This document shows, one piece after another, positions 3,387-19,962 of a DNA stretch of 32,000 nucleotides. A program made the translations under genes and the position numbers. This DNA is from an archaeon GW2011_AR10. GTDB lineage: Archaea > Iainarchaeota > Iainarchaeia > Iainarchaeales > GW2011-AR10. Location of the stretch: assembly GCA_000830275.1 (NCBI GenBank), contig CP010424.1, positions 300,001 to 332,000 on the forward strand. The letters are read 5' to 3'. The first letter of the stretch is position 1; each line of letters starts with the position of its first letter. The notes beneath the pieces are model-generated. The model was given only the letters and a program-made list of their open reading frames with translations, had not been told where the DNA came from and ran no database searches.

Positions 3387-4634
3387 ATGCCATTCAAGGT
3401 GAAAGATGAAAGCCTGGCAAAGCAGGGAGCACTGAACATTGAGTGGGCTGAAAGCCAGATGGGCTCGCTGCTTGAGATAAGGAAACGCTTTGAGAAAGAA
3501 AAACCTTTGAAGGGTTTGACTATTGGAATGGCGCTGCACGTTACAAAAGAGACAGCGGCACTGGTGAGAACACTTGAAACAGGAGGCGCCAAAGTATACA
3601 TAACTGGTTGTAATCCTTTGAGCACGCAGGATGATGTTGCTGCTGCACTTGCAAAAGCAGGCACAAATGTTTTTGCTCACAAGGGGGAAAGCAAGCAGGA
3701 ATATTATGAGTTCCTGAACAAGGTGCTTGATTCAAAACCTGATGTCACAATTGATGATGGTTGTGATTTGATTAGTGAAATACACAAGAACAGAACCAAT
3801 CTGCTTGATGAACTAAAAGTTGGAACTGAGGAAACCACGACAGGGGTTATCCGCTTGAAGGCAATGGAGAAGGATGGTGCATTAAAGTACCCGATTATTG
3901 CAGTTAACGACAGCAAAACAAAGCACCTGTTTGACAACTATTATGGAACCGGGCAAAGCACTCTTGACGGGATTCTTCGCGCAACCAACATTTTGTTTGC
4001 AGGAAAGAACGTTGTTGTATGCGGTTACGGCGAGTGCGGGAAAGGAGTTTCATCAAAGGCAAAAGGCCTTGGCAGCAATGTAATTGTAACTGAGGTTGAC
4101 CCTGTTAAGGCACTGCAGGCAAAAATGGATGGCTTCCGAGTAATGCCGATGGCTGAGGCAGCAAAGGCTGGCGATGTTTTCATTACTGTTACGGGCAACA
4201 GGCATGTCATTAGGACAGAGCACATGAAGCAAATGAAAAATGGTGCGGTTCTTGCGAATGCAGGGCACTTTGATGTGGAAATTGATGTTGCAGGCCTTGA
4301 AAAAGAAGCAAAGCAGAAGCGCAGAATAAGGCCTTTCCTTGACGAGTATGTTTTTGGCAATGGAAGAAAAATTTATTTGTGTGCTGAGGGAAGACTAGTG
4401 AATCTTGCTGCTGCTGAAGGGCACCCGAGCATTGTAATGGCTTTAAGTTTTTGCGGGCAGGCGCTTGCAGTTGAGTACGGCGTGAAGAATGATTTGAGGC
4501 CTGGCCTGCATGTTTTGCCTGAAAGCATTGACAGGCAAATAGCTGAGCTGCAGTTGAATGCTTTGGGAGTTGAATTTGATTCTCTCACAAGAGAGCAGAA
4601 AAAATACCTTTCTTCTTGGAAAGAGGGAACTTAA
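3387..4634 (+). CDS. ahcY: S-adenosyl-L-homocysteine hydrolase (adenosylhomocysteinase), 415 aa archaeal-length form
   Basis: FKVKD-SLA-QG...IEWAE-QM, HVTKETA, NDS-TKH-FDN-YG, and the NAD-binding GYG-CGKG motif. Full-length collinear resemblance to AhcY. Confidence 0.95.
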   Translation: MPFKVKDESLAKQGALNIEWAESQMGSLLEIRKRFEKEKPLKGLTIGMALHVTKETAALVRTLETGGAKVYITGCNPLSTQDDVAAALAKAGTNVFAHKGESKQEYYEFLNKVLDSKPDVTIDDGCDLISEIHKNRTNLLDELKVGTEETTTGVIRLKAMEKDGALKYPIIAVNDSKTKHLFDNYYGTGQSTLDGILRATNILFAGKNVVVCGYGECGKGVSSKAKGLGSNVIVTEVDPVKALQAKMDGFRVMPMAEAAKAGDVFITVTGNRHVIRTEHMKQMKNGAVLANAGHFDVEIDVAGLEKEAKQKRRIRPFLDEYVFGNGRKIYLCAEGRLVNLAAAEGHPSIVMALSFCGQALAVEYGVKNDLRPGLHVLPESIDRQIAELQLNALGVEFDSLTREQKKYLSSWKEGT

Positions 4635-4683
4635 CTATTGTTTCGGCAAACCTTTCTTCTTGGAAAGAGGGAACTTAACTATT
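4606..4683. repeat. Perfect 34-bp direct repeat (4606-4639 and 4650-4683, period 44) duplicating the ahcY 3' end including its stop codon
   Basis: acctttcttcttggaaagagggaacttaactatt occurs twice. Copy 1 contains the last 26 coding nt plus TAA (4632-4634). Copy 2 is non-coding and runs into a T6 tract (4682-4687). Confidence 0.95.
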
Positions 4684-4764
4684 TTTTATGCAAAGAAAGC
4701 TTATTATAGTACAAATTATTTATATTATGCGAATTCTTGAATTGGTTGCCATTGAGGTTTTTTT

Positions 4765-7700
4765 GTGGGAGTAATTGACTGGCTGAAACAGCTGTACTAT
4801 AAAGCTGAAGACAAGTATTATGAGTTTTTGGACAGGGTAAATGAACGCATCCCTATTTATGAGTTAACAGACAGGATTGACAAGGTTTTTCCCAGTTTCC
4901 TGCTTTTCCTGCTGCTTTTGCTTTTACTCTTTTTGCTGTTTTTGTGGCTTTTATGGGGCTTTTTGTTTCCGTTCCTTAACTTTGACAAGGAAGTAAGGTT
5001 TGTTGTGCTTGATGATGCCGGAGCAACGCTTTCAGGCAAAAAAGTGGATGTGTTGCATGACAAAGCAGAGGAAACTTTCACTAGTGATTCGTTTGGGGAA
5101 TTCAAGCTGACTGCAAGGGATTTGAACGTGCTGTTGCAGGTGAAGGAACCAGGCTATGAGCCTTACTCTGATGAAAGAACGGTTTCAGCTTCCGAGCTGA
5201 ACGAAATTGTGCTGACTGGAAGGCCGCCTGTCTTGTTCGAGAAAATAATTGAGGTAAGGAACCCTGAAGGAAATCCGATAGATGGGTCAAGCATGCGTTT
5301 CACTTGCAGCAGGAATTTTGCCGCGCCGAACCCTATAAGGACTGCCAAAAGCGAGGAAAGGATTTTTGTCAGCGAATACTGCGGCATTGTTTCAGTCATA
5401 GTGAACAAGGCAGGCTTCCAGCAAGCAGAAAAAACCCTGACTGCTGCAAGAACTGTTATAATCCTGCAGCCAATTGAGTTGCCGAAAGCAACTTTGAGGG
5501 TTGTTGTTAGGGACATAGAAACCAACAATGGCTTGCCGGAAATAACCCTAGGTATTTACGATGACCGAAATGCTCTCAAAGCACAGGGCATGAGTGACTC
5601 TTCCGGTGCAAAAATTTTTTCTCTTGAGCCAGGGAGCTATTTTGTTAAAGCGCGTGACAACAGGGATGCTCCATTGTATCAGAACAAGGATTCCGGTATT
5701 ATAAGCGTTGAAGTGGATGAAGAAACAACAGTTGAACTGCTGCTTTCAAAGCTGGAGGGCGAAGCAAAGCAGGTTTTGGTTAAGTTCATTGACAAGGCAA
5801 CAAAGGAACCTGTTAAGGGTGTGAGAACAACGCTGTTTGAGGACAGCGCTGAAATAGTGAGAAAGGTTTCCTCTTCTGAGGGGCTTGTTTCATTCATCAA
5901 TGTAACTCCTGGAAGAGAGTACGCTGTTACTGCCGTGCACCAAAATTATGTGTTCAGTTTAATCCAGAACCTGCCGGTTATAAGCAGGTCTTCCTCTAAT
6001 GCGACAGTGATTGAACTGGAAAAGGCAACTTCTGAAAACTCCGGCAACGTGATTGTAAGCGTTAAGAGTCTGGAGGGAAACGCTGTTGATGGTGCACAGG
6101 TTTACCTTTTCATGCATGACATTAATTTTTCTGTGAGAACTGCTTCAACTGATTCTGAGGGCATTGTCAGGTTTGAAAGAATGCCTCTTGGCTTCTACCA
6201 TGCAGCAGCCGAAAAACAGGGAGAGCGCGGAAACTCTGAAACAAAGGCATTGGTTGCCGGTTCTGACCTTTTGCTGGAAATAGTGCTGGTTTTGGCTGAA
6301 GGGTTTATGGAGGTTGAGGTTGTTGATGTTGGCAACAGGCCTCTTGAGGGAGCAAAAGTGGAGTTCGTTGATGCAGTGCACGGAAAACAGGGAGAGGCTT
6401 TAACTCTTGCAAACGGCAAAACCGAAAAAATTTCTTTCAAGTGGAATTTAAGACCATACCTTGTTGTAAGCAAGGAAGGATTCCTTCCAACAACAACTGT
6501 TTCATATGCGATTCTCCCGAGGCAGACAACTAAAGCGAAAGTTGTGCTGCGAACCACTGCTGACCTTGAGGATTTGAAGTGCGACGCTGAAAACAAGCTC
6601 TGCGTTGGCTTGGTTGGAATTCTGAGCAATGACAGAACAAGGAGAGCAGTAAGCTCTTTAACAAGCAACAAAGGCTACGTGCTTTTGTTTGAGATTGTTG
6701 CAGGGAGTGACTTGAACAACGTTGAGTCTGTTGTAAGAACAGGGTTTGAAGAAGAGTTGACTGCAGCTGAATCATTGGTTGTTATTGAGAGGCCGGTTGC
6801 GGCGCTTGCTTCAGCAGTGAAGTTTGACACTTATGATGCAAGCGACAACTACGCTGACTTAACCCCGACAAATGGCGATGGAAAGCAGGCAAAGTTTTCC
6901 TTCCATGACTTGAACAGGGGCATTTACAATTACGAGGTTGAAGTTTTCATCAAGAACACGGATGAGGAAAACGCTGAAATACAGTTAAGGTACGGCGCAA
7001 AAGGCGATGCCGCCACACAGCACATAGTTCTTCCTCCTGCTGGATTGTTCCTTGAAATTTTTTTCCTTGACACTCCGTTTCCCTGCGATGCTGTGCGAGC
7101 CGACTGCTACAATTTTCAATGGAGTTTTTCATTAACAAATCCTGATGGAAGGCACTTTTCTGGAGAAATCGAGTTAACTCCTGAGCAAGTTCAAATAGTA
7201 AGACAGGAATACAGTTATGAATTGACTGCAACTGTTTTCAACCAGCACCAGGAAAACAGGAGCTTCCAGAATGAGGAAATGACTTTTGAAAGCGTTGATG
7301 GGGCCATTGAGGCAAGCCCGGATTCAATTCCTGTAACGGGTTTTTTGCACGGAACATCATATAGTACTTCGGTTTCATTGCAGCCTCTTGTTGGAAGCAG
7401 TTCCAGTGATTTAAGGGTTTCATTGAACCTTAACGAGCGCGATGACACAGTTCAATTGCGCTTCATGGTTCCAGATCAGAACAAGCTTGCCTTGGCTTCA
7501 AGACCAAGTTTCATTACTGCTGGAGCGCCTGAAACAATTCTCATAATTGATGTCACAGATTCAGTTAACGGTCAGGCAGTTGCAGGGGCATTAGTGCAGT
7601 GGGATGACTCAGCAGAATTTAGTTCACCGGAGCCAGTGTTTGAAAATTCTTTGCTTGGAGCAGGAAGTTACACTTTAACTGTTCCAAGAAGGGAAATCGG

Positions 7701-10700
7701 TGAAAGCGTTTTCGTGAAAGCAGAGAAATCCTTTTACCAGGAATCGGATTTGCTTCGCATTCCGGTTCAGCCTCGCGATGAAATTACTTTCAGGCCGGAG
7801 GGCTTTGAGTGCGTTTCCTTAAGCGATAACTCCATTGATGTGCTGCATAATTCTTCTGATACTTTTACTTTGACAACTCATAATTGTGATTTGCCGGTTG
7901 AGGTTGCAATGTATGTTCCTGCTGCAAGCTTTACTCTGCCTTCAGTTGACCTTGCCGGGCCCATTACTTTGAAGGAAGGCAGCAATATTGTAGGGCAGTG
8001 CGAGAGCTGCGCTTCAACGAGCCTCAGCGAAAACGATTCAGTTATTGTAAAAGCTTTGGGTGACAAGCTGCTGGGGCAGTACGACATTTACATTAGGCTG
8101 AGGTATGAAGGCGATGAGGAATTCAGGGACTTTGATGTTGTGGAAGTAAGTGTTAAGCCTGTTGAAGAGGATATTTTTGTGCTTGAAGATGATAAAGCAG
8201 CATACAATATTTTTGGTGGCACAGATGAAGGAACAGCAATTAACAGGAATCCTTTATTTATTTCTGATTTCTGGATTCCAAAAGTTGGTTTTGACCTTGA
8301 TGCAAGGGGAAGGTACTTTGCAGCGCAGGACAGATTCAATGACCTCGGCCTTGTGAGCTTTTGCTGGACTGTCAGGGCTGAAATTGAGGAAAGTGATGAA
8401 CCGCCTGTCAATATTACTGAAACAAATTGTACTGAGATTTTTCCGGAGGAAGGAGTTGTTTATGAGCTATACCAGTTAAGCGAAGAGGACTTTTATTTGC
8501 TTCGCAACATTGACGCAGAAGAGGGGGATGTTCTAAATATTTACGCTGAGGATGATTCGGGCGGGCTAATTGAGACAATGGTTGAGGGAACTCCTGAAAC
8601 AGGCTTGTTTGTGACAGCAATCTACACAGGAAATGTGCAGGACCATGAGGGAATAATTGATTTCACTGTTGTAAATGAAGGTTTGAGGGGCCGTGACTAT
8701 TCCTTGCTTGAAGTCAAAGACAGGGTTCAAGCTCAAGATTCAGAAGAGTCTGTCTATGAATTTACAGGCCTGGGTTTTTCTTACACCATTAAGTCTGTTT
8801 CTGAGAGAGAGACAATAATTCAGAATTTTTCCGAAACTGTTCTGGCTACTGGAGAGGAAGTTGAATTGGGGATTATTCCGGAAAGTTTAAGGCAGGGGGC
8901 TGAAGCAGAATACCTTGTCAGTGATGATAGCGAATTTGTTCTGGTTTACTTTAAGGATGAAAACGGCAGCCCAAGCATTGTTACAAATAATCAGAACGCA
9001 GTTGTTTACGCGCGTGCTGCTTTCTCTTTAAAGCCTTCAAATGAATTGGATATTGCATTTTTGATTGACACTTCTGGTAGTATGGGTACGCCTTGGGATA
9101 CTGTTTGCCAGAGAAGACAGGAGTTGGTTGACCACTTGGAGGAGCAGGGTTTTGACGTTAACTTTGAGGTTTTTGCGATGGGAGTTATTACTAGGAGATC
9201 TCCCTGTGTTGATGAGGTTGCGGAGTGGGCTGATACAGAAATTCCGTTTGTTCGCGGTACGGATCAGATTAATGAGGCATGGGCTCCGACTGGGTTGGAC
9301 GTAATTAACAACAAGTTTGCCTGGCGAGAAAATGCCAGAAAAATTCTTTTGATAATTGGGGATAATTCTCCCGGTGGTTCAGACGAAAGCAGGTGGCGGC
9401 CTAATGGTCAGGGAGAACTTATGACACAGCACCTAGTTGAGGCTGCGCAGGACAAGAATGTCTCGCTTTACTTTTTCCATCCGATTTCAATGGAAAACAG
9501 GACAGCAGCCAAGCTGATTAATGACATGCCGATTGAAGGAACAAGGTGGAAGAATGAATGCCCTGGAAGCAACTGCAAGAATGATTCGATTGAATTAATG
9601 GAGTATGCTGCTGAATGGACTGGAGGATTAGTGGAAACCTATGAAAGCCAGGAAAATTTGGAATTTGCACTTCAAAACGTCAATTTCTTTTCGCTTGTTT
9701 TAAGGGGAATGACCTCTCCTGCTACTGAATATTTCCATGTGAGGCTTGATTCCGGAAAGAAAAATGTCTGCTACGGAAGAAACGACATTGAAGGAATTAC
9801 TGGCAGCGAAGCAATTCCGAGGGTTTTGCCGTCCTGGAACTGGGATTCTGTGGGCATTGACTCCTGTGACCTGCTTGAGTTCAGGGAAGGAACTGCAAGA
9901 AACAATGAGTTCGTTTATTGTGATGCAACACAGTTTACGATTGAACTGATGAAGAAACTAAGCGAGCTTAAGCAGGAAGTTGAAACAAGCGGCAACCTTA
10001 ATATTGCGGACAAGCTCCTGCACTTTGATGCTTTCCTTATGAAGGACGGTTTCACTAGTGATTTCGTAAGTGATTTCAATTCCGCAATGCTTAACCTTGG
10101 CTTCTTTGACACAGGCAATGAGTTTTCCAACGATTTTGATGGCTTCAAGAAACTTTTCCTCGAAAACAATATTCATTTTGATTCAACCGAGCATTCCGTT
10201 ACACCACTGCCTTCAGCTGGACTCTATGAGGTGCAGATAAAGCTTAAGTTTGGCGATGCAGGAAACTGGGTTTTCTTTTCTGATGCAAATTCGAATGTTG
10301 ACGTGAATGTTGTGCTTACAAGAAAGCAGCCGCTTGAAACAGAGAACCTCATTTACTCGCTGCCTGTTGATGGCGTTGTTGGAATTGATCCGGTTTCGGG
10401 AACAGTGAATAGAAACGGCTATGGAATGGGCTTTTCTGGAGAAACTGATGCATTAAGTTTGTACAGGATTAATGAAAGCGGTGACCTGCGTATTGGCTCA
10501 AGCACTGGAAGCCCGCTTGGAAGAATTGACTTGGATGAAAGAACAGACTTTGCCAGCTTAAATCAGGAGTTCAGGGGCAACTTGCTGTTTATCAGAGAAG
10601 AAGCAGTCAACCGGTTTTCTTTTGTTTCAACTTTGAGCCAGCCTAACCCAATTGTAATGGAAGCCTACTCAAATAATGGGAAAGCCGGAGCATTCTTCAA

Positions 10701-11265
10701 CTTAAGGGATGAAACCGGAACCCCAATATCTGATCTTGCATACCTGTCGCTCTGGACTGGAATTGCTTCAGACCTGTCGCTTTGCAGGGATTTTTCCGGA
10801 GAGCATGTTTTCAGGAAAAGGAAGGATTCAAAGCTGAGCACAGCAATTGTAAGCGCTGATGCATGCAATTCTGTTGACGTTGACTCAACTTACGGCTTTT
10901 ACTGGTCTGATGCAGTTGACGGCAGCGTTTACCTGCGCACAATGTTTTTTACTCCCAACAACAATTATTCTTTCAGGAACGCTTGCCAGAACAGGCTTAC
11001 GCGAATTGTTGCAGTCAACGAGGAAATTACTTCTACAACCCCGCTTATACTGAATTCGGGTTCAACAAAACAGGTTTTTTCTCTGGCTGACATATTCGAT
11101 TTGATTGAGCAGGAGTATGTGTGCGTTTCAACAAGGGTTGACAGCGGCAAAAAAGTAACTGACTTTTGGTGGAATGAAGACAAATTGTTTGAGGAGCTGG
11201 AGCAATCAAAGGGAGAATTCTTTTGTAATCTGACTATGTGCAGTGCCCTCCAGATAAACTGTTAA
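4765..11265 (+). CDS. Giant (2166 aa) N-terminally membrane-anchored surface protein with repeated PEGA/CarboxypepD_reg-like beta-sandwich modules and an internal vWA domain
   Basis: Uninterrupted 6.5-kb ORF. GTG start at 4765 preceded by tGAGGT (4753-4758), with no in-frame ATG nearby. One hydrophobic anchor at aa 42-71. Repeated about 90-aa units of the type V-VV-D--G-PL-GA-V...G-Y---A-K-GY. DxSxS MIDAS motif at aa 1435-1439. Many N-x-S/T sequons and Cys residues. Confidence 0.85.
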   Translation: MGVIDWLKQLYYKAEDKYYEFLDRVNERIPIYELTDRIDKVFPSFLLFLLLLLLLFLLFLWLLWGFLFPFLNFDKEVRFVVLDDAGATLSGKKVDVLHDKAEETFTSDSFGEFKLTARDLNVLLQVKEPGYEPYSDERTVSASELNEIVLTGRPPVLFEKIIEVRNPEGNPIDGSSMRFTCSRNFAAPNPIRTAKSEERIFVSEYCGIVSVIVNKAGFQQAEKTLTAARTVIILQPIELPKATLRVVVRDIETNNGLPEITLGIYDDRNALKAQGMSDSSGAKIFSLEPGSYFVKARDNRDAPLYQNKDSGIISVEVDEETTVELLLSKLEGEAKQVLVKFIDKATKEPVKGVRTTLFEDSAEIVRKVSSSEGLVSFINVTPGREYAVTAVHQNYVFSLIQNLPVISRSSSNATVIELEKATSENSGNVIVSVKSLEGNAVDGAQVYLFMHDINFSVRTASTDSEGIVRFERMPLGFYHAAAEKQGERGNSETKALVAGSDLLLEIVLVLAEGFMEVEVVDVGNRPLEGAKVEFVDAVHGKQGEALTLANGKTEKISFKWNLRPYLVVSKEGFLPTTTVSYAILPRQTTKAKVVLRTTADLEDLKCDAENKLCVGLVGILSNDRTRRAVSSLTSNKGYVLLFEIVAGSDLNNVESVVRTGFEEELTAAESLVVIERPVAALASAVKFDTYDASDNYADLTPTNGDGKQAKFSFHDLNRGIYNYEVEVFIKNTDEENAEIQLRYGAKGDAATQHIVLPPAGLFLEIFFLDTPFPCDAVRADCYNFQWSFSLTNPDGRHFSGEIELTPEQVQIVRQEYSYELTATVFNQHQENRSFQNEEMTFESVDGAIEASPDSIPVTGFLHGTSYSTSVSLQPLVGSSSSDLRVSLNLNERDDTVQLRFMVPDQNKLALASRPSFITAGAPETILIIDVTDSVNGQAVAGALVQWDDSAEFSSPEPVFENSLLGAGSYTLTVPRREIGESVFVKAEKSFYQESDLLRIPVQPRDEITFRPEGFECVSLSDNSIDVLHNSSDTFTLTTHNCDLPVEVAMYVPAASFTLPSVDLAGPITLKEGSNIVGQCESCASTSLSENDSVIVKALGDKLLGQYDIYIRLRYEGDEEFRDFDVVEVSVKPVEEDIFVLEDDKAAYNIFGGTDEGTAINRNPLFISDFWIPKVGFDLDARGRYFAAQDRFNDLGLVSFCWTVRAEIEESDEPPVNITETNCTEIFPEEGVVYELYQLSEEDFYLLRNIDAEEGDVLNIYAEDDSGGLIETMVEGTPETGLFVTAIYTGNVQDHEGIIDFTVVNEGLRGRDYSLLEVKDRVQAQDSEESVYEFTGLGFSYTIKSVSERETIIQNFSETVLATGEEVELGIIPESLRQGAEAEYLVSDDSEFVLVYFKDENGSPSIVTNNQNAVVYARAAFSLKPSNELDIAFLIDTSGSMGTPWDTVCQRRQELVDHLEEQGFDVNFEVFAMGVITRRSPCVDEVAEWADTEIPFVRGTDQINEAWAPTGLDVINNKFAWRENARKILLIIGDNSPGGSDESRWRPNGQGELMTQHLVEAAQDKNVSLYFFHPISMENRTAAKLINDMPIEGTRWKNECPGSNCKNDSIELMEYAAEWTGGLVETYESQENLEFALQNVNFFSLVLRGMTSPATEYFHVRLDSGKKNVCYGRNDIEGITGSEAIPRVLPSWNWDSVGIDSCDLLEFREGTARNNEFVYCDATQFTIELMKKLSELKQEVETSGNLNIADKLLHFDAFLMKDGFTSDFVSDFNSAMLNLGFFDTGNEFSNDFDGFKKLFLENNIHFDSTEHSVTPLPSAGLYEVQIKLKFGDAGNWVFFSDANSNVDVNVVLTRKQPLETENLIYSLPVDGVVGIDPVSGTVNRNGYGMGFSGETDALSLYRINESGDLRIGSSTGSPLGRIDLDERTDFASLNQEFRGNLLFIREEAVNRFSFVSTLSQPNPIVMEAYSNNGKAGAFFNLRDETGTPISDLAYLSLWTGIASDLSLCRDFSGEHVFRKRKDSKLSTAIVSADACNSVDVDSTYGFYWSDAVDGSVYLRTMFFTPNNNYSFRNACQNRLTRIVAVNEEITSTTPLILNSGSTKQVFSLADIFDLIEQEYVCVSTRVDSGKKVTDFWWNEDKLFEELEQSKGEFFCNLTMCSALQINC
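4888..4977 (+). other. Single N-terminal transmembrane anchor of the giant protein (FPSFLLFLLLLLLLFLLFLWLLWGFLFPFL)
   Basis: A 30-residue Leu/Phe run is encoded by ctg/ctt/ttg-rich low-complexity DNA. It is preceded by a charged 41-aa segment and followed by D/K/E, which suggests an N-in, bulk-outside topology. Confidence 0.7.
9043..9680 (+). other. von Willebrand factor type A (vWA) domain with complete MIDAS, aa ~1427-1639 of the giant protein
   Basis: LDIAFLIDTSGSMG (DxSxS), downstream AWAPTGLD (Thr), ILLIIGDNSPGG (Asp), and the end of the fold around AAEWTGGLVETYES-ENLE. Confidence 0.75.
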
Positions 11266-11288: not shown

Positions 11289-12002
11289 TTACCTTATTGC
11301 TTCCCACATGATTTTGTCTCTTGGGTTGATTTGGATGCCTTTGCTGGTTATTTCGAATGGGTGAACGTTTTTGCTGTGGTTGGTGGCGCGCATTTTTCTA
11401 ACGAAAACGCTTCTGTTTGGTGGAGAAAAATACAATGCAATGACCCCGTCAGCAACAAACTCTTCCACCCCAAAAGCACTAAAATCATTCCTCCTGCCCC
11501 TCGTCTCAGAGGAAAGAAGTGTTGTGCAGTCCAATTCCTTGAGGGCATTCGTGAAGTGGTAGAGTGTGCTCCTCATGGTGCCCCTGCTTTCAGTGCCCAC
11601 GCTTAATGCAGTTGTGCTGTCAACCACCAGCCTCTTGGCTTTAATCTGCTTTACCATTGAGGCAATCACTTCCAACTCTTTTTCTATTTGTTCTTCAGCA
11701 GTAGTGTGGCGCCTCAGTATGTCAAGGTTGAGTTTGTAAATTTTTATGAGATTCTTTTCCTGCAGTTTTCCTATGTCCCAGTTGAAGCTCTGCATGTTCC
11801 AGCCAATGTTTTTGATGTTTCCTTCCAGCGTTACAAAAAGGCCTGGTTCCATGAACTGTTTTGCCCCCTCATAAATGTATTGCAGGCAAAAAATGGTTTT
11901 GCCTGTGCCAGAGCCGCCTGACACAAGCACTGAGGAACCAACTGGAATGCCTCCTTCAATGAGTTCGTCAAAACCCGGAATTCCTGACCTGATTCTGTCC
12001 AT
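11289..12002 (-). CDS. KaiC-like / RecA-superfamily ATPase, single domain (237 aa)
   Basis: GIPGFDELIEGGIPVGSSVLVSGGSGTGKTIFCLQYIYEGA is the typical KaiC-domain N-terminus with a Walker A motif. RLVVDS is Walker-B-like. AAGGTGG ribosome-binding site just upstream of the ATG on the minus strand. Confidence 0.85.
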   Translation of the reverse strand: MDRIRSGIPGFDELIEGGIPVGSSVLVSGGSGTGKTIFCLQYIYEGAKQFMEPGLFVTLEGNIKNIGWNMQSFNWDIGKLQEKNLIKIYKLNLDILRRHTTAEEQIEKELEVIASMVKQIKAKRLVVDSTTALSVGTESRGTMRSTLYHFTNALKELDCTTLLSSETRGRRNDFSAFGVEEFVADGVIALYFSPPNRSVFVRKMRATNHSKNVHPFEITSKGIQINPRDKIMWEAIR

Positions 12003-12873: not shown

Positions 12874-12916
12874 ATATAATGAAGTATATAAATATTAGTG
12901 GTGATATAAGTTGACT

Positions 12917-13156
12917 ATGAATGTTTATGACATTAAATTGTCTAAAGGATTCCAGTTTACTCTGCAAGCTGAAAGCAGGAGAAAACATAATTTGAAGCCA
13001 GGACAAAAAATTCAGGTGATTGATTTGGATAAGGAGATTATTTTGAGACCCAAAAGAAAAGGCAGTTTAAAGAACTTGGTAGGAAAGTTTAAGGCAGGCA
13101 AACGATTTGATGTCGTTAAAGAGCACGACTTGATTGTGGCGGGTTTTGGTCAATGA
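12917..13156 (+). CDS. vapB: AbrB/SpoVT-fold antitoxin (VapB-like); the ORF also opens at TTG 12911
   Basis: KGFQFTLQAESRRKHNLKPGQKIQVIDLDKEIILRPK fits the swapped-hairpin AbrB pattern (G-q-tiP...r--l-lkpGd-v). Its stop overlaps the start of the PIN gene (ATGA at 13153-13156). Confidence 0.7.
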   Translation: MNVYDIKLSKGFQFTLQAESRRKHNLKPGQKIQVIDLDKEIILRPKRKGSLKNLVGKFKAGKRFDVVKEHDLIVAGFGQ

Positions 13157-13557
13157 AATTTATTGATACTGTTACCTTGTTTGCCGGATTTTTCGTTGAT
13201 GAAAAGCACCATGTAAAAGCTAAAGAAGTAGTTGCAGCAATAGCAGAAGGGAAAGTTAGAGACGCAGTATACTCAGATTACGTGTTGGATGAATTGCTTA
13301 CTCTGGCAAGAGCTAAAAAGGGGGCAGCGGTTTCAAACGAAATTTTAGAGGAAATAGCTAATTCAGAGATTAAGATGGAAAAAGTCGAACAGCGGCATTT
13401 AAGTCTGGCGATGGAGCTTTTCAAAAGCTACGAAAAACTTAGTTTTACAGACTGCACAACAGTAGCATTAATGTTGGATCTGGGGATAAAGGAAATTTAT
13501 TCCTTTGACAAGGGCTTCGATTCTGTCGCAAAGATAGTCAGACTGGAAGAACTTTGA
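13153..13557 (+). CDS. vapC: PIN-domain ribonuclease toxin (VapC-like), 134 aa
   Basis: The PIN acidic residues are in the expected order: FIDT (Asp5), LDELL, SFTDCTT, and SFDKGF near the C-terminus. The gene is paired with an upstream AbrB-type antitoxin. Confidence 0.8.
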   Translation: MKFIDTVTLFAGFFVDEKHHVKAKEVVAAIAEGKVRDAVYSDYVLDELLTLARAKKGAAVSNEILEEIANSEIKMEKVEQRHLSLAMELFKSYEKLSFTDCTTVALMLDLGIKEIYSFDKGFDSVAKIVRLEEL

Positions 13558-16833: not shown

Positions 16834-17529
16834 TTAATCGGCTTTTTTTTCCGCATTATCCTGCGCTTTAAAGTAATAGTGGGACATCAGTTGCATTGGA
16901 CTGAGCTTGGAGCAGACTGTGCTTGAGTCAACAAAGATTTCCTCATTCAAATTTTTCACTTGCTGGGCAAAACCAATCATTTCTTGCAGCGGGCTTTCAG
17001 GGCTTTTAAATTCAATTTTGTTGAATGCGCCTTTTCTGAGAAAAATTGCTTCAAGAGATGCTGCCTCTGCTTTTTTTAGTCCGCTGGGCAGCAGTTCCTC
17101 AAAGGGAACCCTTTCAGGTTTGCTTTTCCCAACATTTTTTAGGGCATTAGAGTAAGGGATTCCTCCAAGCGATTTGAAAAATGCAGGCGCTATCACTTCT
17201 TTGCCTGAATTGGATAGCCTTGAAAGAATGTCTGTTGGGGGAAATATGTTAGGCTGCAGGAAAAGCACTGCTTCATAGTTTTCCTTTTTGGCCTCTTTTA
17301 AAACCGAGTTTCTTATTTCAGAGAACTGCTGTAAAATGTTCTCTTTTTTTTCAATTCTTCTTACTTCTAATCCTTTCAAGAGCGGCATTGCTTCACTCCA
17401 TAGCTCTCCAAACAAATCGAACAAAACAGTTTTTTCTGGTTTTGGGTTTAGGGCATTAATGCTTTCTACAAATATTGGGAGGCATTGCTGTATTTCTGCA
17501 AAATAAACTGATGCGATTAAAACCTTCAT
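16834..17529 (-). CDS. GT-A-fold glycosyltransferase-like protein, probably catalytically degenerate paralog of the upstream gene (231 aa)
   Basis: Collinear similarity by eye to 17526..18245: KVLIAS/KILVGS, LFLQPNIFPPTDILSRL versus LSIEQDIIPPQDVAERL, FVDSSTVCSKL versus LVDSRVSCKHM. QPN replaces the acidic EQD. The start overlaps the upstream stop (ATGA at 17526-17529). Confidence 0.5.
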   Translation of the reverse strand: MKVLIASVYFAEIQQCLPIFVESINALNPKPEKTVLFDLFGELWSEAMPLLKGLEVRRIEKKENILQQFSEIRNSVLKEAKKENYEAVLFLQPNIFPPTDILSRLSNSGKEVIAPAFFKSLGGIPYSNALKNVGKSKPERVPFEELLPSGLKKAEAASLEAIFLRKGAFNKIEFKSPESPLQEMIGFAQQVKNLNEEIFVDSSTVCSKLSPMQLMSHYYFKAQDNAEKKAD

Positions 17530-18245
17530 TTGAATCCCAGCTTCTCCATCAATTCAGGAGAGTGAAGCCTTGCCATGTGCTTGCATGAAACCCGCGAGTC
17601 AACTAATACTTCAAAGCCTAGCTTGAATGCATCCCTGCAAAACCACAGATCATCGTATGCCTTGATTTTTGGGTTAAAGCGGAACTTAATTTTTTCAAGC
17701 ACGTCCCTGTGGATTATGAGGCAGCCAATGCCTGTTACAAAAACTTTTATCGGCCTTGAAGGCCATAGGTCATCAAACATCAGGCGCCGTGTTATGCCTG
17801 TGCCTTTGTCTTTGGGGTTAATGGGGCAGAACATGTCTGGTTTCAGGATTTTGTCTTCTTTTTCATGAGAGAAATTGAAGTAAGCGCCGCTGACGATTTT
17901 TGCACTGCGGTTTTCAAGCAGCCTCTCAGCAACATCCTGAGGCGGAATTATGTCCTGCTCGATGCTGAGCCAGTAATCGAAGCCCTCGTTTAAAGCCTTT
18001 TCGCGGAAAAAGTTTCTGTCCCTTGCAAGCATTTTTCTAACGTTTCCTGCGTGCTCTGTTTTAATGTAATTTATTCCTGAATTTCTGAATTCCGCTGAGA
18101 GGCCTCTTCCTTCCGGGCTGTTGTCCAATACAAGCAGTTCCTTGTTTTTGTAGGTTAAGCTGTTCAGTGCTTTTATATAGTCCGGGATGCTGTATTTTTT
18201 GAGGGAAGTGACAGGGCTTCCAACCAGGATTTTGGGAATGTTCAT
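17526..18245 (-). CDS. Glycosyltransferase, GT-A fold (family 2-like), 239 aa
   Basis: LLVLDNSPEG, the acidic IEQDIIPP (DxD-equivalent position), GCLIIHRDVLEKI, and DDLWFCRDAFKLGFEVLVDSRV-C-H resemble GT2-type motifs. Confidence 0.65.
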   Translation of the reverse strand: MNIPKILVGSPVTSLKKYSIPDYIKALNSLTYKNKELLVLDNSPEGRGLSAEFRNSGINYIKTEHAGNVRKMLARDRNFFREKALNEGFDYWLSIEQDIIPPQDVAERLLENRSAKIVSGAYFNFSHEKEDKILKPDMFCPINPKDKGTGITRRLMFDDLWPSRPIKVFVTGIGCLIIHRDVLEKIKFRFNPKIKAYDDLWFCRDAFKLGFEVLVDSRVSCKHMARLHSPELMEKLGFK

Positions 18246-19044: not shown

Positions 19045-19962
19045 TTATTTTCTTTTTGCTTCGCGCAACGCCCCTGCATGATTTTTTCCCATGCACCTAG
19101 AATAAAGATAAGTCCAGCCCTGCGCTCCTGAAAGGTTTTGGTGCAGCCACTGCCCTATTCTCCTTCCCGCAACATAAGACATTTCAGGTTCATTGTAGTT
19201 TGTTGGCTTTCCTGTTTCCAAAACTCTTGCCTTGAAATCAAAGTCCTCTTTTGTCGGCGCCTTAATTTCTGGCTTAACCTCTACTATGCCCTGCTCCAAG
19301 CCGTAAAACCTGTCAATTGCCTCAGAAAACGGGACATCTACTTTTATCACTCCGAGCTTTTGGAGCACATGCATTGTTTCATGGATTGGTGCAAGCCTTG
19401 ATATTTGGTTCTCTCTCCAGCCCGGTGCAATGAAAAATTTTCCGTTGTTTTCATAAATCCAGCCCCTGTAAATTCTTCCCTTTGACCTAAAAGTATGAAA
19501 AAGCTCAATTCCTTCTTTTCTTTGCCATTTTGCAGTCTCGCTCCTTCCTTTTTTTCTGGCAGAAGCAGGAACACTTTTTTTGGAAAGAATGTTCCTAATG
19601 GAAAGCGTTTGTTTGCTTGCGGCCTTAAGGACTTTTTTCATCACTTTTTTTCTTTCATTCAGCGGAAGGTGCCGCGAAAAAACATCCACTGCAAACCTTA
19701 TTTGCTTTTCCATTTCCTGAATATCTTCACTGGAGTGCCATCTTCCGCTAATCCTGTGCTTGAAAGCAGGTACAGGGAAAGATCTTTTTCTGTGGCTCTT
19801 TGTTTTTCCCCACGATACTGCCAGAAACCTTTCACCAATCCTTTTGGCTTTTGCGAGGTCAGTGGCAGGAGAAATTTTTCCTGTTCTGATGAAAGCGGAT
19901 TCATGCGAATGGTCTCGGCCACTGCGCAGGCCCGTCTTTTTTGTTTGGGGGGTTATCCTCAA
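19045..19962 (-). CDS. Hypothetical protein (305 aa) with a very basic N-terminal half and an HExxH motif; possible zinc metallopeptidase
   Basis: Longest ORF in the region. K/R-rich first about 160 aa. APIHETMHVLQ (plus-strand 19369-19383 encodes HETMH), with a Glu 16 residues after the second His (FSEAID). I do not recognise the family. Confidence 0.5.
   Translation of the reverse strand: MRITPQTKKTGLRSGRDHSHESAFIRTGKISPATDLAKAKRIGERFLAVSWGKTKSHRKRSFPVPAFKHRISGRWHSSEDIQEMEKQIRFAVDVFSRHLPLNERKKVMKKVLKAASKQTLSIRNILSKKSVPASARKKGRSETAKWQRKEGIELFHTFRSKGRIYRGWIYENNGKFFIAPGWRENQISRLAPIHETMHVLQKLGVIKVDVPFSEAIDRFYGLEQGIVEVKPEIKAPTKEDFDFKARVLETGKPTNYNEPEMSYVAGRRIGQWLHQNLSGAQGWTYLYSRCMGKNHAGALREAKRK

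Follow-up and report, generated by a model that had tools for sequence, protein, structure and literature searches.

The genome of archaeon GW2011_AR10 (Candidatus Iainarchaeum), a DPANN archaeon, is tiny, yet 6.5 kb of it is spent on a single gene. What might so large a product do for such a cell? The gene lies in the window analysed here, 32,000 nucleotides (nt) of contig CP010424.1 (positions 300,001 to 332,000, forward strand), where it runs from 4765 to 11265 on the + strand; from a GTG start it codes for a protein of 2166 amino acids (aa) and 241 kDa. A first reading of the bare sequence, below called the original prediction, took the product for an N-terminally anchored giant surface protein with beta-sandwich repeats, a von Willebrand factor A (vWA) domain and long unassigned regions. 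Judging by its architecture, we favour with moderate confidence a rod-like, adhesin-type surface protein, anchored with the N-terminus inside the cell and the C-terminus outside (type II) and serving in adhesion.

The open reading frame (ORF) is genuine. An uninterrupted run of 2166 sense codons in DNA of 44% G+C is far beyond chance, and the translation agrees at every residue with AJF59854.1 (hypothetical protein QT03_C0001G0353 of archaeon GW2011_AR10), which UniRef labels 'VWFA domain-containing protein'. The original prediction had named an assembly chimera as a way in which it could fail. This is excluded because the identical protein is present in several independent assemblies, including the 1.24-Mb AR10 genome, because a variant 99.5% identical is encoded in the same gene order on an ENA scaffold from another sample, and because homologs of about 39% identity are colinear with it over their full length (P0051, residues 3-2166 against 6-2214; P0068, 7-2166 against 18-2170).

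The chain begins with a pre-anchor segment (aa 1-41; 4765..4887, +), delimited by family alignments and probably cytoplasmic. Its family motif is LKxxYYxxEDKYYxxLDxxNxxIPVYxxxDxIDKVxPSF, for which the aligned members give the consensus LKxFYYxLEDKYYxxLDxxNxxIPVYxxxDPIDKVVPSF; Y11, E15, D23, P30, D39, P43, S44 and F45 are invariant across 10 members. The segment found no match in Pfam or NCBIfam. A single transmembrane signal-anchor follows (aa 42-73, FPSFLLFLLLLLLLFLLFLWLLWGFLFPFLNF; 4888..4983, +), identified by hydropathy analysis as the only hydrophobic stretch of transmembrane length. A second hydrophobic peak, at aa ~493-520, falls within a beta-sandwich repeat, and from there to the C-terminal end, ...CNLTMCSALQINC, the analysis found no hydrophobic segment; there is no PGF-CTERM or archaeosortase C-terminal sorting signal with a transmembrane helix. 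Hydropathy thus agrees with the single N-terminal anchor, and no C-terminal one, first proposed.

The orientation of this anchor is given by the family as a whole. The uncharged stretch averages 32.6 aa, and among 58 members the mean count of Lys and Arg is 2.41 in the 15 aa before it and 1.07 in the 15 aa after it; the count is higher before than after in 47 of the 58 and lower in 2. This positive-inside bias supports an N-in, C-out topology, which would place the bulk of the protein outside the cell, as the original prediction required. The Cys content, about twice that of neighbouring cytoplasmic proteins, was counted toward the same topology. With some 32 residues and no evident cleavage site, the hydrophobic stretch is more likely to be a permanent anchor.

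The strict form of the N-terminal motif occurs in 53 of 113 full-length members, most of the others having a looser or shortened form. Motif and anchor also stand at the head of giant proteins that have no C-terminal domain of the kind described below (P0011, P0012, P0015/16), and therefore constitute an independent module. In P0011, P0012, P0015 and P0016 the N-terminus reads YYxxEDKYY...PVY...P[ST]F followed by a transmembrane helix, and some of these proteins carry DUF7382. It may be that the motif serves anchoring or export more generally. ESPR is a conserved N-terminal extension that precedes the hydrophobic export segment in very large autotransporters and TpsA proteins. The archaeal motif would be its counterpart in being a conserved extension before a hydrophobic segment, specifically in very large exported proteins; the two are unrelated in sequence, and they would differ also in the length of the archaeal hydrophobic stretch and its want of a cleavage site.

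Beyond the anchor lies a stalk (aa 75-600; 4987..6564, +) of about six prealbumin-like modules of the CarboxypepD_reg type, identified with Pfam and hhalign. CarboxypepD_reg (PF13620) matches at E 1.3e-21 and 77.1 bits (cutoff 32.3) in four stretches, and matches to SpaA, bMG3, SdrD_B and Big_1 overlap them. Profile-profile comparison gives firm repeats at aa 242-327, 335-420, 425-512 and 513-600, the three others scoring an hhalign probability of 95-98% against repeat 425-512, and weaker candidates at aa ~73-160 and 922-1005. Where the original prediction had counted at least five PEGA/CarboxypepD_reg-like repeats in aa 75-600, we find four firm repeats and about two weak ones, all of the CarboxypepD_reg type, and its four example strings coincide with the starts of the four firm repeats. 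The PEGA half of that label falls away: PEGA has no Pfam match in the giant protein and was matched in one homolog only. All 10 family members scanned have CarboxypepD_reg matches, and SpaA, SdrD_B, Big_1 and MG-type beta-sandwich matches occur across the same 10. By BLAST, more than 100 of 162 family representatives retain the stalk region.

The next stretch, aa 601-760 (6565..7044, +), is conserved in the family (BLAST coverage about 90 of the 162 representatives) and contains a C606/C613 pair; its fold is unassigned, a profile of aa 598-925 having found nothing in the PDB or Pfam. It leads into an acidic, variable middle (aa 761-1420; 7045..9024, +), defined by composition and by BLAST coverage. 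Over aa 760-1420 the isoelectric point is 4.09, with 18% Asp and Glu and 6% Lys and Arg; some 10-30 of the 162 have this region in common, and coverage within it falls to 6-30. At the level of the full protein it has no Pfam or PDB sequence match, and profile searches were marginal at best, so the first description of it as acidic and unassignable holds. Those searches leave a candidate extra CarboxypepD_reg-like module at aa 922-1005 (nt 7528-7779, +; hhalign probability 35% at 922-953) and a possible Ig-like module at aa ~1010-1085, the profile of aa 1005-1420 having a weak match to a nanobody (Ig V) at E 0.005.

The middle ends in a vWA / integrin I-like domain (aa 1425-1650; 9037..9714, +), identified by alignment, profile search and AlphaFold with Foldseek. 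A 13-sequence profile searched against the PDB finds integrin beta-6/beta-8 I-like and alpha-L I domains at E 3.5e-4 to 5e-3. The AlphaFold model of aa 1400-2166 has a predicted local distance difference test (pLDDT) score of 83 and shows the Rossmann-like vWA fold: the top 50 Foldseek matches are nearly all of that fold (integrin beta, CMG2, vWF A3, TFIIH p44, Ku), the best at E 1.4e-4 and probability 1.0. After the first beta-strand comes the DxSxS motif (D1435, S1437, S1439) of a metal-ion-dependent adhesion site (MIDAS), which together with D1533 is invariant in 13 subfamily sequences; D1533 aligns with the motif Asp of integrin beta-6. The presence of a vWA domain is thereby borne out, and on both profile and model it does belong to the vWA/integrin I-like superfamily, as a divergent member. 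With integrin beta I-like, alpha I and other vWA domains (4wjk_B, 5ffg_B, 1dgq_A, CMG2 1shu) it has the Rossmann-like fold, DxSxS and the downstream Asp in common. It differs from them in a sequence identity of 12-15%, in a score below the Pfam VWA threshold, in its long insertions and its own conserved C1448-C1481 pair, a predicted disulfide within the domain, and in belonging to a single-chain archaeal protein, whereas integrin I domains are part of a heterodimeric receptor.

A separate observation concerns strain variation in this region. Compared with the scaffold of locus L013, from another sample, the window is 99.65% identical, with 69 substitutions, nearly all in a few short patches: 8250-8289 and 9056-9133 in the giant gene, and also 846-974, 2331-2498 and 19413-19823. 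One patch falls in the beta1-alpha1 stretch of the vWA domain and has 16 nt and 7 aa changes, including DTSGS to DVSGS. Targeted diversification of hypervariable segments was rejected as an explanation, the gene having two short patches and the flanking housekeeping genes similar patches of single-nucleotide polymorphisms. From their distribution the patches look like strain recombination or a mixed-strain consensus.

The chain closes with the family-defining C-terminal domain (aa 1664-2166; 9754..11262, +), delimited by profile and AlphaFold. It has 10 Cys and the motifs YCDATQF, LMxDGYxxDFxxDF, YxxPxDGxxG, RxGYG, WxGxxxxxxxCxxF and FWWN, and its invariant or near-invariant residues in the alignments are mostly Asp, Gly, Tyr, Trp, Pro, Arg and Cys. 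The AlphaFold model, made from 38 sequences, has a pLDDT of 85.4 and a predicted template modelling score (pTM) of 0.86, and predicts a small N-terminal part with Cys, then a helical sub-region, next several beta-sandwich sub-regions and last an alpha/beta cap. Foldseek found nothing for this model at E<=1e-3 in the PDB or in BFVD; the best PDB match is the PA14 carbohydrate-binding domain of a Marinomonas adhesin (E 0.019, probability 0.28, template modelling (TM) score 0.26). The sequence has no match in Pfam, NCBIfam or PHROGs, its PDB sequence-profile matches are at chance level (best E 3), and a scan of viral contigs for the domain found no relative. Provisionally, then, the modelled domain is without known fold, in line with the original suggestion that the long unassigned regions could hold novel domains.

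Two compositional claims of the original prediction fared less well. The 26 Cys of the giant protein, most of them paired at close spacing, make up 1.2% of the whole and 2.0% of the C-terminal 507 aa, as against 0.66% in the other ORFs of the window, so that the enrichment called Cys-rich is genuine but modest. The supposed abundance of N-x-S/T sequons is not above chance, with 16 observed and 16.8 expected from composition.

How widely this architecture is distributed was assessed with an exhaustive profile search of the C-terminal domain against representatives of 50%-identity clusters. It recovers 828 representatives at E<=1e-3 and 524 at E<=1e-30. Among the best 150 of the 828 the domain stands at the extreme C-terminus, and most of these 150 are 2100-3250 aa long, the shorter ones resembling fragments at contig ends. 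The giant protein carries both marks of the family, the N-terminal YYxLEDKYY...PSF motif with a single transmembrane helix and the C-terminal motifs at the extreme C-terminus of a chain longer than 2000 aa. BLAST coverage among 162 relatives is about 90-115 over aa 1-750 and about 110-155 over aa 1650-2150, on either side of the poorly covered middle; a conserved anchor and stalk, a variable middle and a conserved head are the family pattern. In these sequence comparisons the C-terminal region is the defining domain of a large conserved family and not a lineage-specific tail, and the vWA domain, limited to a subfamily of about 13 of the 162 representatives, is the lineage-specific part. Neither point, nor the conserved motif of the short N-terminus, was part of the original prediction.

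Named members come from Ca. Iainarchaeum / Diapherotrites metagenome-assembled genomes (MAGs) and one Micrarchaeota MAG, under the public names 'hypothetical' or 'carboxypeptidase regulatory-like domain-containing protein', so that the family is in essence unannotated. The family diverges fast, as its 828 clusters at 50% identity attest, and some genomes have two very divergent paralogs, in tandem or dispersed; both features are usual for exposed surface proteins. A scan of the genome collection with a four-sequence alignment found 8 loci. Giant paralogs were noted among L002/L003/L004 (1-15911), P0033 and P0169, and L009 and L011. On one 831-kb contig tandem giant paralogs of 2635 and 2636 aa have 28% identity over aa 333-1293, and a second pair, whose members both list a longest contig of 1,194,739 bp and are probably from one genome, has 25-31% identity. 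Across 11 loci we found no conserved neighbour gene beyond synteny among close relatives, and therefore the gene stands alone and not in a secretion or pilus operon.

Taken along the chain, these parts suggest how the protein could work. The cytoplasmic motif of about 40 residues and one long transmembrane helix would anchor it in the cytoplasmic membrane, and the six or so prealbumin-like modules would form a stalk of about 20-25 nm, carrying the rest through the cell envelope and past it. The distal half would present the lineage-variable acidic region, ending here in the integrin-like vWA domain, which could bind the carboxylate of a ligand by way of a metal ion in the MIDAS, and at the chain end the C-terminal domain common to the whole family, about 500 residues probably stabilised by disulfides. 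The most likely role would be attachment, whether to another cell, to a surface polymer or to the cell's own outer layer; the variable middle would account for binding particular to a lineage, and the conserved C-terminal domain for binding or assembly common to all members.

A cell anchor, tandem stalk domains and a recognised binding domain are together the architecture of fibrillar adhesins, and all three are present; anchor, beta-sandwich stalk, vWA domain and unassigned C-terminal region make the protein adhesin-like rather than enzyme-like, as first proposed, and searches of Pfam, NCBIfam, PHROGs and the PDB brought up no catalytic family, such domain searches being one of the ways in which the original prediction could have failed. 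The working principle of anchor, Ig-like extender and distal binding modules would resemble that of bacterial fibrillar and giant adhesins. MpIBP of Marinomonas primoryensis is a very large, acidic, N-terminally anchored protein with Ig-like extenders and distal ligand-binding modules, among them one of vWA-type fold. The giant protein is like it in size, acidity, anchoring at the N-terminal end, beta-sandwich extenders and a distal vWA-type module, but MpIBP is plugged in the outer membrane, whereas the archaeal protein has a transmembrane helix in the cytoplasmic membrane, preceded by the conserved motif. Unlike giant RTX adhesins it has neither RTX repeats nor a type I secretion signal, and its extender modules number only about six and are divergent where theirs are near-identical. 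Its repeat stalk makes up only the proximal quarter, and its large end domain is conserved, has no detectable relatives outside the family and does not match PA14 or other adhesin tips (best E 0.019), although PA14 entries 6x7z and 5j6y are among the Foldseek matches. SPEARE proteins reportedly carry serine protease and restriction endonuclease domains. SPEARE proteins of Nanohaloarchaeota (PMC6642349) are likewise giant surface-associated DPANN proteins with a proposed part in host contact, but belong to a different phylum; Pfam finds neither of those domains in the giant protein, and no sequence relationship was found.

Several points weigh against an adhesin. The vWA domain scores only 15.6 bits (E 0.019) against Pfam VWA (PF00092), short of the gathering cutoff of 23.8. 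Its MIDAS, called complete in the original prediction, is only partly borne out as such: DxSxS and D1533 are invariant, but no conserved Thr was found at the canonical position among the 13 subfamily sequences, which leaves the fourth MIDAS position unassigned. E1504, nearly invariant in the subfamily, may substitute for that Thr; Glu fills the Thr/Glu MIDAS position in integrin beta subunits. The rod length is an estimate built on about 4 nm per Ig-like module, a general domain size. The distal domain is the most conserved part of the protein, while in bacterial fibrillar adhesins it is usually the adhesive tip that varies most, and a conserved tip is no less compatible with a part in structure or self-assembly than with recognition of a host. 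The roughly 820 residues of aa 600-1420, which lie outside the modelled regions, could hide an enzymatic domain. Finally, AR10 may not be an episymbiont living attached to a host.

The main rival, which we consider unlikely, is an envelope tether or spacer: the protein would link the cytoplasmic membrane to the S-layer and set the width of the pseudoperiplasm, its C-terminal domain docking in or forming the outer lattice, in the manner of the SlaB stalk or the NOMO1 rod of the endoplasmic reticulum. The conserved distal domain just mentioned is what a self-ligand would lead one to expect, and a NOMO1-like domain is among the precomputed Pfam matches on family members. NOMO1 (PF13620, PF22904) similarly has tandem prealbumin-like modules beside a single membrane anchor, an arrangement suited to a rod or spacer, but it is eukaryotic, anchored at its C-terminus and almost wholly made of modules, whereas these form only the proximal quarter of the giant protein. 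In Ca. Micrarchaeum harzensis the width of the pseudoperiplasm was measured as 20-25 nm, and the authors note that its S-layer protein possibly depends on another protein, a stalk anchored in the membrane (10.1101/2021.04.28.441871); the length estimated for the transmembrane helix and six-module stalk, ~20-25 nm, equals that width. An acidic, secreted envelope protein is also common to archaeal S-layer systems, and a membrane-anchored beta-sandwich stalk is the principle of SlaB in the SlaA/SlaB pair of Sulfolobales. However, 240 kDa with a variable middle of 900 residues and a vWA domain far exceeds what a simple tether needs, and the very divergent paralog pairs speak against it as well. 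The named members are mostly Iainarchaeota, whose envelope is undescribed, with only the one from Micrarchaeota, and no co-location with an S-layer gene was seen at the compared loci.

Identity with the Micrarchaeota S-layer protein itself was rejected: that protein, SLP_Mh of Ca. Micrarchaeum harzensis, is 101 kDa with PF05123, and S-layer proteins are typically Cys-poor and of 40-200 kDa (10.1101/2021.04.28.441871). The giant protein, at 241 kDa and with 26 Cys, lies outside that description, and neither it nor the scanned members have a Pfam match to S_layer_N (PF05123) or S_layer_C. Compared with SLP_Mh it is 2.4 times larger, is anchored at the N-terminus rather than the C-terminus, and has Cys pairs.

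Less probable still is a surface-displayed enzyme, in which the C-terminal domain or part of the middle, held out by the stalk, would attack polymers of the host or the environment as a new hydrolase or lyase. The C-terminal domain does have invariant or near-invariant D1761, D1766, D1770, R1883, Y1886, W1997 and D2021, residue types common in carbohydrate-active sites; its best, weak Foldseek matches are carbohydrate-binding or -processing proteins (PA14, beta-glucanase, CBM40); and in two relatives the gene adjoins glycoside hydrolase and glycosyltransferase genes. Those matches fall short of significance even at their best (E 0.019, probability 0.28, TM score 0.26), Pfam, NCBIfam and PDB profile searches return no catalytic family, the C-terminal alignment has no invariant Glu, His or Ser, and the glycoside hydrolase neighbour is not conserved.

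A membrane-anchored alpha-2-macroglobulin (A2M)-like protease trap after the manner of bacterial A2M (ECAM/YfhM) would suit the size, the N-terminal membrane anchoring and the bMG3 (36.1 bits against a cutoff of 34.9) and MG4 matches in the giant protein or its homologs, but is scarcely credible and was rejected because the CxEQ thioester motif is absent from the sequence and Pfam gives no thioester-domain, A2M or receptor-binding-domain match, while the MG matches overlap the CarboxypepD_reg repeats, reflecting a shared beta-sandwich fold, and the C-terminal model matches no A2M structure in the PDB.

Around the gene, two candidate start signals were picked out by eye: a Shine-Dalgarno-like GAGGT (4754..4758, +) lies 6 nt 5' of the GTG, and an A/T-rich, TATA-like box, ATTTATATTA (~4718-4727, +), lies 5' of it. 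The GTG itself is supported by homologs whose alignments begin at residues 1-7. The same intergenic region holds a 44-nt tandem duplication (4606-4693) of two copies 93% identical. It takes in the end of the AdoHcy hydrolase gene (the final 29 nt and the stop codon) and a further 15 nt beyond; over this stretch there are zero mismatches between the ENA variant scaffold and the window. The neighbours are housekeeping genes (glycine cleavage system, lipoate ligase, AdoHcy hydrolase, KaiC-like ATPase, ScpA, A-type ATP synthase). The single-domain KaiC/RecA-like ATPase (237 aa; 11289-12002, - strand) is convergent with the giant gene, its end lying 24 nt past the giant gene's stop; one other Iainarchaeum MAG (L008) likewise has it and ScpA as downstream neighbours, an arrangement that more distant relatives lack. 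Elsewhere in the window, an 81-aa ORF (12911-13156) overlaps the start of a PIN-domain gene (13153-13557) by 4 nt, the usual layout of a VapBC-type toxin-antitoxin pair. Minus-strand runs at 701-2216 (135, 168 and 164 aa) and 16834-18245 (231 and 239 aa) have no Pfam assignment; the 239-aa protein has a weak, below-threshold match to Anp1 glycosyltransferase-like proteins (E 7.7e-5).

The sequence was already public and its vWA domain already flagged in UniRef. Our literature search found no description of the family, the N-terminal motif or the C-terminal domain, all three of which are apparently undescribed. Current views are not overturned, giant adhesin-like proteins being expected in small-genome symbionts. 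A bolder extension of the adhesin reading, which we offer tentatively and with more doubt than confidence, is that the family is the main contact apparatus, with host, substrate or envelope, of Iainarchaeota and some Micrarchaeota, that its C-terminal ~500 residues adopt a new fold and bind a conserved ligand, and that the pre-anchor motif serves in these archaea as a signal dedicated to exporting or anchoring giant surface proteins, like ESPR or YSIRK-type signals in principle. The C-terminal domain could merit both an entry of its own among the domain families and a solved structure, and the N-terminal motif, common to other giants, points to an undescribed common handling or anchoring route. 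If the attachment or envelope role is true, the family would give a widely conserved target for studying partner contact or envelope building in these archaea.

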